Assembly: GCF_045037415.1 (NCBI RefSeq)
Contig: NZ_CP173438.1
Length of the DNA: 64,000 nt
Strand: one strand, 5' to 3'
From: Escherichia coli
GTDB taxonomy: Bacteria > Pseudomonadota > Gammaproteobacteria > Enterobacterales > Enterobacteriaceae
A program made the position numbers. Below, piece after piece: positions 16,201 to 19,200 of this stretch (its first letter is position 1; the number at the start of each line of letters is the position of its first letter).

Positions 16201-19200
16201 TTTACATCTGCCACGTCGCCCACATAGACGAAGTCACGTTTAAAGTTCTCGCTACCTTCGAACAGCTTCGGTGATTCACCGTTATTAAGCTGGGTGTTGA
16301 GATGGAAAGCGACGCTCGCCATACTGCCTTTATGGCCTTCACGAGGTCCATAAACGTTGAAATAACGGAAGCCAACAATCTGCGAGTTCGCTTCAGGCAG
16401 GATTTGGCGAACATATTCATCAAACAGGAATTTTGAGTAACCGTAGACATTCAACGGTTTTTCATATTCGCGGGATTCAATAAAGTCGGAGGTGCGTCCA
16501 CCGTAAGTGGCTGCGGAAGAGGCATACAGGAACGGGATTTCGCGCTCCAGACAGTAGTGCAGCAGCTCTTTGGAGTATTGATAGTTGTTATCCATCATAT
16601 ACTTGCCGTCCCACTCGGTGGTGGAAGAGCACGCGCCTTCGTGGAAAATCGCTTCGACATCGCCGAACTCTTCGCCAGCCATAATCTGGATCAGGAAGTC
16701 TTCCTTATCCATATAGTCCGCGATATCCAGATCCACCAGGTTCACAAACTTGGTGCCGTCTTTCAGGTTGTCCACCACCAGAATATCGGTGATGCCTTTA
16801 TCATTCAGGGCCTTAACGATGTTGCTGCCGATAAAGCCCGCGCCGCCGGTAACGATGATCATAACTGTAACCTTCGAATTATGGAGTCAGAGACAATCTC
16901 AGACACGAATACTTCTATCATATCACTACACGGCGTTGGCTTCAGCCATTCGCCAAAAGTGAGATTGATGGACGTTATTTATCCTGAATTTTGCAGAAGT
17001 GTTAACGCGTCATCTCGTCGCGACCTAGAAGTTTGGGTAATATGTGCTGGAATTTGCCCTGTCTGGAGAATCGCAATGCGTGGAGAATTTTATCAGCAGT
17101 TAACCAACGATCTGGAAACCGCACGGGCGGAAGGGTTGTTTAAAGAAGAGCGCATTATTACGTCTGCGCAGCAAGCAGATATCACTGTGGCTGATGGAAG
17201 CCACGTTATTAACTTTTGCGCCAATAACTATCTCGGACTGGCAAATCATCCAGAGCTGATTGCGGCGGCAAAAGCGGGAATGGACTCTCATGGTTTTGGG
17301 ATGGCTTCGGTGCGCTTTATCTGCGGCACCCAGGATAGCCATAAAGAGCTTGAACAAAAACTGGCGGCATTCCTGGGGATGGAAGATGCGATTCTCTACT
17401 CTTCCTGCTTTGATGCTAACGGCGGCCTGTTTGAAACGCTTCTGAGCGCGGAGGACGCCATTATCTCCGACGCACTGAACCACGCGTCTATTATTGATGG
17501 TGTGCGTCTGTGTAAAGCTAAACGCTATCGTTATGCCAACAACGATATGCATGAGCTGGAAGCTCGTCTGAAAGAAGCGCGTGAAGCCGGTGCGCGTCAT
17601 GTGCTGATTGCCACCGATGGTGTGTTCTCGATGGACGGCGTGATTGCCAACCTGAAGGGCGTTTGCGATCTGGCAGATAAATACGATGCCCTGGTGATGG
17701 TAGACGACTCCCACGCGGTCGGTTTTGTCGGTGAAAATGGTCGTGGTTCCCATGAATACTGCGATGTGATGGGGCGGGTCGATATTATCACCGGTACGCT
17801 TGGTAAAGCGTTGGGCGGGGCTTCTGGTGGTTACACCGCAGCGCGTAAAGAAGTGGTTGAGTGGCTGCGTCAGCGTTCTCGTCCTTACCTGTTCTCCAAC
17901 TCACTGGCACCTGCCATTGTGGCTGCTTCCATTAAAGTGCTGGAGATGGTCGAAGCGGGCAGTGAGCTTCGTGACCGTCTGTGGGCGAACGCGCGTCAGT
18001 TCCGTGAGCAGATGTCGGCGGCGGGCTTTACCCTGGCGGGTGCCGATCACGCCATTATTCCGGTCATGCTTGGCGATGCTGTAGTGGCGCAAAAATTTGC
18101 CCGTGAACTGCAAAAAGAGGGCATTTACGTCACCGGTTTCTTCTATCCGGTCGTTCCTAAAGGTCAGGCGCGTATTCGTACCCAGATGTCTGCGGCGCAT
18201 ACCCCTGAGCAAATTACGCGTGCAGTAGAAGCATTCACGCGTATTGGTAAACAACTGGGCGTTATCGCCTGAGGGTGTGAGATGAAAGCGTTATCCAAAC
18301 TGAAAGCGGAAGAGGGCATCTGGATGACCGACGTTCCTGTACCGGAACTCGGGCATAACGATCTGCTGATTAAAATCCGTAAAACAGCCATCTGCGGGAC
18401 TGACGTTCACATCTATAACTGGGATGAGTGGTCGCAAAAAACCATCCCGGTGCCGATGGTCGTGGGCCATGAATATGTCGGTGAAGTGGTAGGTATTGGT
18501 CAGGAAGTGAAAGGCTTCAAGATTGGCGATCGCGTTTCTGGCGAAGGCCATATCACCTGCGGTCACTGTCGCAACTGTCGTGGCGGTCGTACCCATCTGT
18601 GCCGCAACACGATCGGCGTCGGTGTTAACCGTCCGGGCTGCTTCGCCGAGTATCTGGTGATTCCGGCGTTCAACGCCTTCAAAATCCCAGACAATATCTC
18701 CGACGACCTGGCTTCCATTTTTGATCCCTTCGGTAACGCCGTGCATACCGCGCTGTCGTTCGATCTGGTTGGCGAGGATGTGCTGGTCTCTGGTGCAGGT
18801 CCGATAGGTATTATGGCTGCGGCGGTGGCGAAACACGTTGGTGCACGCAATGTGGTGATCACTGATGTTAACGAATACCGCCTTGAGCTGGCACGCAAAA
18901 TGGGTATCACCCGTGCGGTTAACGTCGCTAAAGAAAACCTTAATGATGTGATGGCAGAACTGGGCATGACCGAAGGCTTTGATGTCGGTCTGGAAATGTC
19001 CGGTGCGCCGCCAGCGTTTCGTACCATGCTCGACACCATGAACCACGGCGGTCGTATTGCGATGCTGGGTATTCCACCGTCCGATATGTCTATCGACTGG
19101 ACCAAAGTAATCTTTAAAGGCTTGTTCATTAAAGGTATTTACGGTCGTGAGATGTTTGAAACCTGGTACAAGATGGCGGCGCTGATTCAGTCTGGCCTCG

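Follow-up and report, generated by a model that had tools for sequence, protein, structure and literature searches.

In Escherichia coli K-12 MG1655, the genes hldD and kbl are separated by yibB/htrL (858 bp, 285 aa), which is transcribed in the direction of kbl and away from hldD. Its product belongs to the HtrL/YibB family, defined by Pfam PF09612, TIGR02192 and NF008462, and scores 436 bits with the Pfam HtrL_YibB model and 550 bits with NF008462. The proteins of this family are uncharacterised, although some of their records are named 'WlaTC/HtrL family glycosyltransferase', and HtrL retrieved no significant relative by sequence among solved structures (best E = 0.24). Members of the family are found in LPS/LOS loci of Citrobacter, Salmonella, Pectobacterium, Providencia and Acinetobacter (database records; PMC4172580), and pan-genome comparisons of E. 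coli already report htrL as variably present (PMC8303582). The spacer between htrL and hldD of K-12 is listed as H-NS bound (PMC3946193), and transcription of the K-12 gmhD(htrM)-waaFC operon is described as heat-induced, with a heat-inducible htrM/rfaD promoter, in a passage of PMC8745692 that cites Raina and Georgopoulos 1991. On the other side of the locus, a study in Salmonella found approximately 24-fold more kbl-tdh mRNA with a G>A mutation at position -60 relative to kbl, which it assigns to the -35 element, and further activating mutations in Lrp sites upstream of the kbl promoter (PMC6593847).

We analysed the corresponding locus in a stretch of 64,000 bases of an E. coli chromosome (hereafter the window), in which hldD and kbl also diverge and the space between them is short. 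The same flanking genes, in the same orientations, are present in K-12 MG1655.

The hldD-kbl intergenic region

The genes and the spacer considered here are the following:

15930-16862, minus strand: hldD (rfaD/gmhD), ADP-L-glycero-D-manno-heptose 6-epimerase, 310 aa (ORF list, NCBIfam NF008360 and SK1144 annotation)
16863-17075, no strand: divergent intergenic region without a gene, compact allele, 213 bp
17076-18272, plus strand: kbl, glycine C-acetyltransferase (2-amino-3-ketobutyrate CoA ligase), 398 aa (NCBIfam TIGR01822, 744 bits; SK1144 annotation)
18282-19307, plus strand: tdh, L-threonine 3-dehydrogenase, second gene of the kbl-tdh operon (NCBIfam NF003808, 648 bits)

The start codon of hldD occupies positions 16860-16862 (CAT on the plus strand) and the ATG of kbl positions 17076-17078, leaving a spacer of exactly 213 bp. 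HldD reaches 674 bits against a cutoff of 452 (NF008360, where it is named ADP-glyceromanno-heptose 6-epimerase), and its gene heads the series hldD-waaF-waaC(-waaL). Beyond HldD, Kbl and Tdh, the next neighbours recognised by NCBIfam equivalog models are RfaF and WaaH, with WaaF scoring 749 bits.

The preliminary description of this DNA had reported a distance of 213 bp with no ORF in it, and both statements hold. The only ORFs of at least 20 aa that touch the spacer are a GTG-started frame at 16557-18272, of which kbl (17076-18272) is the portion beginning at the ATG, together with four frames of 20-70 aa that are short or antisense; apart from the in-frame extension of kbl, nothing exceeds 70 aa and no credible ORF is present. 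An ORF of approximately 285 aa matching the HtrL/YibB profiles was not found between hldD and kbl in the window, and tblastn with K-12 HtrL against the whole 64 kb, which includes the entire waa cluster, returned nothing better than E = 1.1. A search of 16700-17250 against Rfam 15, with E up to 10, gave no family at gathering score, the best hits (E of at least 6) being chance matches inside the hldD coding sequence. The window is identical to positions 76914-140913 of E. coli SK1144 (NZ_AP018784.2; 100% identity, 0 mismatches in 64,000 bases), whose RefSeq record has nothing annotated between rfaD and kbl. The absence of htrL (yibB) at this place, as first proposed, is thus borne out, and so is the K-12 gene order on which it was based, since MG1655 does carry a 285-aa yibB here and its hldD and kbl are not immediately adjacent.

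Two states of the locus and the origin of htrL

We searched for both arrangements in 5,426 complete E. coli genomes, 5,424 of which contain the locus, scoring the compact state where a single place covered at least 80% of the 213-bp spacer. This state was found in 3,465 of the 5,426 genomes (64%), among them the UPEC strains CFT073 and UTI89, and the K-12 htrL/yibB segment in 1,959 (36%), with K-12, O157:H7, O104:H4 and O111:H8 as examples. As the two numbers add up to all 5,424 locus-bearing genomes, the two states partition the collection; the spacer was split into two places in 1,957 genomes, as expected of bearers of an insertion. In CFT073, UTI89 and the other compact genomes the spacer has 213 bp, no gene and 96-100% identity to that of the window, with nothing annotated between rfaD and kbl, and the main compact allele, that of CFT073 and UTI89, differs from the window by point differences only. 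A second compact allele of 212 bp (84% identical; 483 genomes, e.g. PE15) is Citrobacter-like in its kbl-proximal half. In one genome, PKF8, an IS1-associated deletion extends from yibB into waaH. The compact spacer is the ordinary, majority state of E. coli, already known and visible in public annotation. The difference, at the edge of the waa cluster, had been presented as strain-specific: the locus does differ from that of K-12, but it is not peculiar to this strain.

These counts also bear on the idea that htrL has moved, i.e. that a gene of the family resides elsewhere in the chromosome and its function is kept. Such relocation might be imagined from a divergent HtrL paralog (P0026, 59% identity) that one assembly, designated E. 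coli, carries near icd, and from one complete genome with a 'WlaTC/HtrL family glycosyltransferase' at another locus. However, no HtrL-like sequence occurs in the 64-kb window with its entire waa cluster, the compact and the yibB-bearing sets sum exactly to the locus-bearing genomes (at the DNA level and across the collection), and a distant-mode blastn search with the paralog matched only 1,958 genomes, where all but one among the matches listed were annotated yibB. Relocation is, in our judgement, very improbable. The paralog itself was discarded as a substitute for HtrL, being restricted to a single assembly, near icd, with no close copy in the 5,426 complete genomes.

We also considered whether htrL follows the K-12 core type, and rejected this association. 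The waa cluster of the window is colinear with that of K-12 (waaQGPSBOJYZU, waaL, waaC and waaF), with 92-98% identity from waaS through waaL and only 71-81% for waaQ, waaG and waaP; a K-12-type cluster is therefore present without htrL, and htrL is present in O157:H7 and O111, which have the R3 core type. Since the K-12-type outer-core gene set occurs here without htrL, the presence of this gene is not tied to core type.

The alignment with the hldD-kbl region of K-12, which the preliminary description had called for, displays an interrupted homology. By pairwise BLAST, the homology breaks at window positions 16910/16911 and 16971/16972, and K-12 carries 1,283 bp in place of the 61 bp at 16911-16971 of the window. 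Outside this replacement the two chromosomes are nearly the same: the 48 bp beside hldD and the 104 bp beside kbl are 99% identical, as measured together with the adjoining coding sequences. The K-12 segment has 36% G+C, against 51% in hldD and 54% in kbl, and in it yibB is closely preceded by a promoter-like TATACA-18-TATAAT and closely followed by a terminator-like hairpin and its T-run. Low in G+C and equipped with promoter-like and terminator-like sites of its own, the segment looks like a self-contained, horizontally acquired cassette.

The two sequences at the left end of the replacement are distantly alike. The 61 bp of the window and the first 62 bp of the K-12 segment share 57.8% identity (mean of shuffled sequences 49%, maximum 58%), and the matches are concentrated in two promoter blocks, ATCATA and CTTCAGCC. 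The first approximately 60 bp of the K-12 segment represent an hldD promoter block that has diverged and is 58% identical to that of the window. The same approximately 60 bp are 71% identical to the sequence of Enterobacter sp. Ag1. This left arm, diverged in K-12 and nearer to that of Ag1, suggests that the cassette travelled together with a foreign hldD promoter, the two being moved jointly by homologous recombination in the flanks.

To establish which of the two states is ancestral we scanned for HldD in one genome per GTDB species and took the best 80 of the 595 confirmed relatives as a sample of species. In approximately 60 of these best 80 loci, hldD(-waaF) is immediately preceded by the divergent pair tdh-kbl, and the spacer measures 212-240 bp in nearly all of them, longer ones being those of Mangrovibacter (280 bp) and Brenneria (approximately 360 bp). 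The compact arrangement is found in E. albertii, Citrobacter, Enterobacter, Kluyvera, Cedecea, Pantoea and Pectobacterium, and likewise in Dickeya, Serratia, Yersinia, Photorhabdus, Proteus and Providencia, whereas in Tatumella, Rosenbergiella, some Erwinia and the Pasteurellaceae kbl is not beside hldD. The other Enterobacterales share with the window the gene order, the divergence, the conserved promoter-like blocks and a hairpin in the hldD leader; the spacer centre and the hairpin stem vary in sequence. In 16 of the 17 other Enterobacteriaceae that we aligned, the start codons are 212-218 bp apart, the exception being Mangrovibacter with its 280 bp. The spacer has 213 bp in E. albertii and 214 bp in Citrobacter; counted over the spacer and 12 nt of each flanking coding sequence, its identity to the window is 93.7% in E. 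albertii, 83.6% in Citrobacter sp. FP75 and 74.5% in E. cloacae. The window thus combines adjacency and divergence at 213 bp, full-length homology to the outgroups and all of the conserved blocks. A compact layout across Enterobacterales, with 93.7% identity in E. albertii, argues that the compact spacer is ancestral and that the htrL segment of K-12 is a later, derived insertion of low G+C content.

The opposite polarity would require a K-12-like ancestor bearing htrL, from which the gene was deleted so as to leave 213 bp. Such an ancestor of the region is conceivable, as the outer core is encoded by K-12-type waa genes (92-98% identical) and htrL occurs in several E. coli lineages (K-12, O157:H7, O104:H4 and O111:H8). 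Yet the spacer can be aligned over its whole length with those of E. albertii (213 bp, 93.7%) and Citrobacter (214 bp, 84%) and shows neither a scar nor a remnant or junction; nor would the outgroup sequence, with its 61 bp that are absent from K-12, be restored by a spontaneous deletion. A reversion could only have come about by recombinational replacement with a compact allele, in which case the ancestral allele is still what occupies the place. We therefore regard secondary loss as improbable, while noting that ancestral absence across Enterobacterales is compatible with a lineage that possibly once had htrL and regained the compact allele by recombination. Our strongly preferred reading is that 16863-17075 is the ancestral, uninterrupted intergenic region between two divergent operons, into which an htrL cassette was inserted in K-12 and in 36% of E. 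coli; htrL would be missing here because this chromosome carries the uninterrupted allele.

The part of the spacer that receives insertions in other genomes is its centre:

16948-16971, no strand: variable centre of the spacer, insertion site in other genomes, the least conserved stretch of the cross-species alignment

Among the best 80 of the 595 loci, only three have something between kbl and hldD. In Enterobacter sp. Ag1 the insertion is an htrL gene with 81% protein and 76.6% DNA identity to that of K-12, in Citrobacter youngae it is a gene for a 383-aa WaaB-like GT4 glycosyltransferase (383 bits, against a cutoff of 385 for the WaaB model), and in Grimontia it is an unrelated ORF of 246 aa. 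The gene inserted in C. youngae is of a family unrelated to the htrL of Ag1 and K-12. Unlike the window, which has no insertion, both Ag1 and C. youngae carry LPS-related DNA of 39-41% G+C, bounded by CTTCAGC, the promoter block of hldD, and by ACGTGATTTAT, the block upstream of kbl. Since the insertions of K-12, Ag1 and C. youngae all have this one pair of conserved blocks as their borders, the spacer centre appears to be a position, at the boundary of the waa cluster, that is permissive for accessory LPS genes. htrL is itself an accessory, probably laterally exchanged gene of a putative LPS/LOS glycosyltransferase family.

Putative promoters and the hldD leader hairpin

From the alignment of 18 Enterobacteriaceae we defined a series of conserved blocks, all of which are present in the window at 16869-17069: AACCTT, the leader hairpin, ATCATA, CTTCAGCC, ACGTnATTTAT, TCATCTCGT, GGGTAATATGTGC and TCTGGAGAAT. 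The features assigned to them are, from hldD to kbl:

16869-16874, minus strand: presumed hldD Shine-Dalgarno sequence AAGGTT, 6 nt before the ATG (AACCTT near-invariant in 18 species)
16886-16904, minus strand: hairpin in the hldD 5' leader, GUC-U-GAGA UUG UCUC-U-GAC, identified by covariation
16917-16922, minus strand: putative hldD -10 element TATGAT, 5/6 to consensus (ATCATA invariant in 18 Enterobacteriaceae)
16940-16945, minus strand: putative hldD -35 element CTGAAG, 17 nt upstream of the -10 element, 3/6 to consensus (conservation of CTTCAGCC)
16972-16986, plus strand: ACGTTATTTATCCTG upstream of kbl, candidate Lrp-binding site, kept in 18/18 species
17010-17020, plus strand: TCATCTCGTCG with the putative kbl -35 element TCGTCG (17015-17020), 3/6 to consensus (TCATCTCGT at 17010-17018 nearly invariant)
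17038-17043, plus strand: putative kbl -10 element TAATAT, 17 nt after the -35 element (conserved block TTTGGGTAATATGTGC, within GGGTAATATGTGC)
17065-17069, plus strand: presumed kbl Shine-Dalgarno sequence GGAGA (TCTGGAGAAT conserved)

On the hldD side, ATCATA is also kept in K-12, where the left arm has diverged, and CTTCAGCC is conserved from Escherichia to Kluyvera as well as in the K-12, Ag1 and C. youngae alleles; transcription is predicted to start near 16910. On the kbl side, position 16972, the first base of ACGTTATTTATCCTG, is also the start of the right homology arm common with K-12, and a rough match to the Lrp consensus makes it probable that this block is bound by Lrp. The placement of the putative kbl -35 element, where G17017 of the window lies at -59 from kbl, agrees with the -60 mutation of Salmonella, the only directly usable information that we found in the literature on the kbl-tdh promoter and Lrp and on hldD transcription starts.

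A simple scan for sigma-70 consensus promoters and terminators found nothing promoter-like in 16700-17250, and both -35 elements match the consensus in only 3/6 positions, so that the promoter assignments follow from conservation and not from consensus strength or mapped starts. With this qualification, the 213 bp may be described as two putative back-to-back promoters with short leaders, in agreement with the compact divergent promoter region for hldD-waaFC and kbl-tdh that had been anticipated.

The leader hairpin was identified in 47 Enterobacterales leaders, for which RNAalifold returned one helix of 6 bp with compensatory changes in 6/6 pairs. The helix cells were paired in 91.8% of cases, compared with 22-48% when the 3' partner was slid by 1-3 columns, and 58 of them were changed on both sides; the observed values were reached by 0/500 shuffles. 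Compensatory substitutions maintain the structure from Escherichia to Yersinia, Serratia and Rahnella. The E. coli form of this helix, GUC-U-GAGA/UCUC-U-GAC closed by a UUG loop, is also seen in the single-sequence minimum free energy structure; the innermost pair of the alignment is physically impossible in E. coli-type sequences, where a loop of 1 nt would remain. The folding energy of the single leader sequence is not unusual (z = 0.23), so it is covariation that supports the hairpin, and Rfam 15 contains no family that reaches the gathering score for it.

As the hairpin begins approximately 6 nt after the predicted transcription start, its simplest reading would be that of a 5'-terminal stabilising stem-loop. 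A bolder proposal, which we advance only tentatively and think rather doubtful, is that the hairpin is not neutral and exerts an undescribed post-transcriptional control of the hldD-waaFC heptose operon, and that the spacer centre is a recurrent landing site for accessory LPS-core genes (htrL, waaB-like). Under control of this kind, the hairpin could, for instance, stabilise the 5' end or respond to temperature or to an sRNA.

A model of the locus and its meaning

Taken as an ancestral region with an insertion in some strains, the locus could be organised as follows. The spacer would part hldD-waaF-waaC(-waaL), on the left, from kbl-tdh, on the right, with a promoter and a short leader running outward on each side from a poorly conserved centre. 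Towards hldD, the predicted order is a -35-like CTGAAG, 17 nt, a -10 element TATGAT and a leader of approximately 48 nt, with the hairpin first and the presumed ribosome-binding site AAGGTT last. Towards kbl, the upstream conserved block, probably bound by Lrp, would be followed by a weak -35 element near -60, the -10 element TAATAT, the presumed ribosome-binding site GGAG and the ATG. Where present, a cassette in the permissive centre would bring its own promoter, its terminator and a diverged hldD promoter block, and may pass between strains, and also between genera, when the conserved flanks undergo homologous recombination.

K-12 is an unusual reference at the hldD-kbl locus, which by itself has little import beyond correct annotation, and is a reminder for comparative genomics that what is 'missing relative to K-12' is often 'inserted in K-12'. 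Because a K-12-type core cluster is carried here without htrL, the comparison argues that HtrL would not be needed for assembling the basic K-12-type core. The conserved blocks mapped here may also offer a compact template for studying the control of hldD-waaFC and kbl-tdh from one region of 213 bp.

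A conserved hairpin in the hldD leader

Within the 213-bp hldD-kbl spacer of the window, which is a compact allele without htrL (yibB), conservation and covariation delineate one structured element:

window 16886-16904, minus strand: short hairpin at the beginning of the hldD 5' leader

Across 47 Enterobacterales this hairpin is conserved, and each of its six pairs shows compensatory changes; 91.8% of cells are paired, compared with 22-48% in slid controls. No family corresponding to it was found in Rfam.

The waa cluster and other regions of the window

The waa cluster is of the K-12 core type and colinear with that of K-12, yet it is mosaic: identity to K-12 is just 71-81% for waaQ, waaG and waaP (window 2728-5697) and 92-98% from waaS through waaL (window 5734-13901). 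Further features were identified elsewhere in the window, some of them from the identical SK1144 annotation:

window 32495-36838, minus strand: YadA-like trimeric autotransporter adhesin gene (1,447 aa)
window 36882-37562, minus strand: DUF3251 gene
window 44668-46483: yibH-yibF junction (SK1144 annotation)
window 50459-51754; 53581-55550; 55561-58002: Fic, then GH127/MFS/AraC regions (SK1144 annotation)

The adhesin gene, which contains internal 155-bp repeats (90% identical, window 35112-35413), and the DUF3251 gene are both located between lldP and yibL, a site that we take to be the UpaG/EhaG position, in a region presumably unlike K-12. According to the SK1144 annotation, a Fic-family protein gene occupies the yiaY-aldB interval, and the stretch from aldB to the yiaK-S/sgb cluster holds a frameshifted gene for a GH127 glycoside hydrolase along with genes for an MFS transporter and an AraC regulator. 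K-12 presumably carries a rhsA/yibA/yibJ/yibG element near the yibH-yibF junction; this element appears to be absent from the window, since the SK1144 annotation has yibH directly adjoining yibF, followed by selA and selB.

The hldD-kbl locus and HtrL in other genomes

Other arrangements were observed in comparison loci, each with its own numbering:

L003 3001-3212: second compact spacer allele, E. coli PE15 (212 bp, 84% identical)
L004 4049-5223: IS1-associated deletion, E. coli PKF8
L087 6001-6975: divergent HtrL-family paralog (324 aa, 59% amino acid identity)
L072 3549-4700: WaaB-like GT4 glycosyltransferase gene, Citrobacter youngae
L028 3839-4696: htrL, Enterobacter sp. Ag1 (81% amino acid identity)

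The 212-bp allele is present in 483 of 5,426 complete E. coli genomes (~9%), and its kbl-proximal half is Citrobacter-like, a sign that recombination has occurred here. In PKF8, IS1 lies at 218 bp inside the K-12-type segment and is immediately followed by a truncated waaH; therefore, yibB, kbl and tdh are deleted. The HtrL paralog, found near icd in a single assembly labelled E. coli (GCA_900448175.1), adjoins a gene for a TonB-dependent receptor as well as an IS1 fragment, and none of the 5,426 complete genomes of E. coli has a close copy.

The C. youngae glycosyltransferase gene and the Ag1 htrL occupy one common position at the centre of the hldD-kbl spacer. The hldD leader of Ag1 resembles that of E. 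coli, unlike the leaders of Cedecea neteri and Enterobacter sp. R1, to which Ag1 is related, and this sequence comparison suggests that the entire cassette and its adjoining leader were exchanged laterally as one unit.
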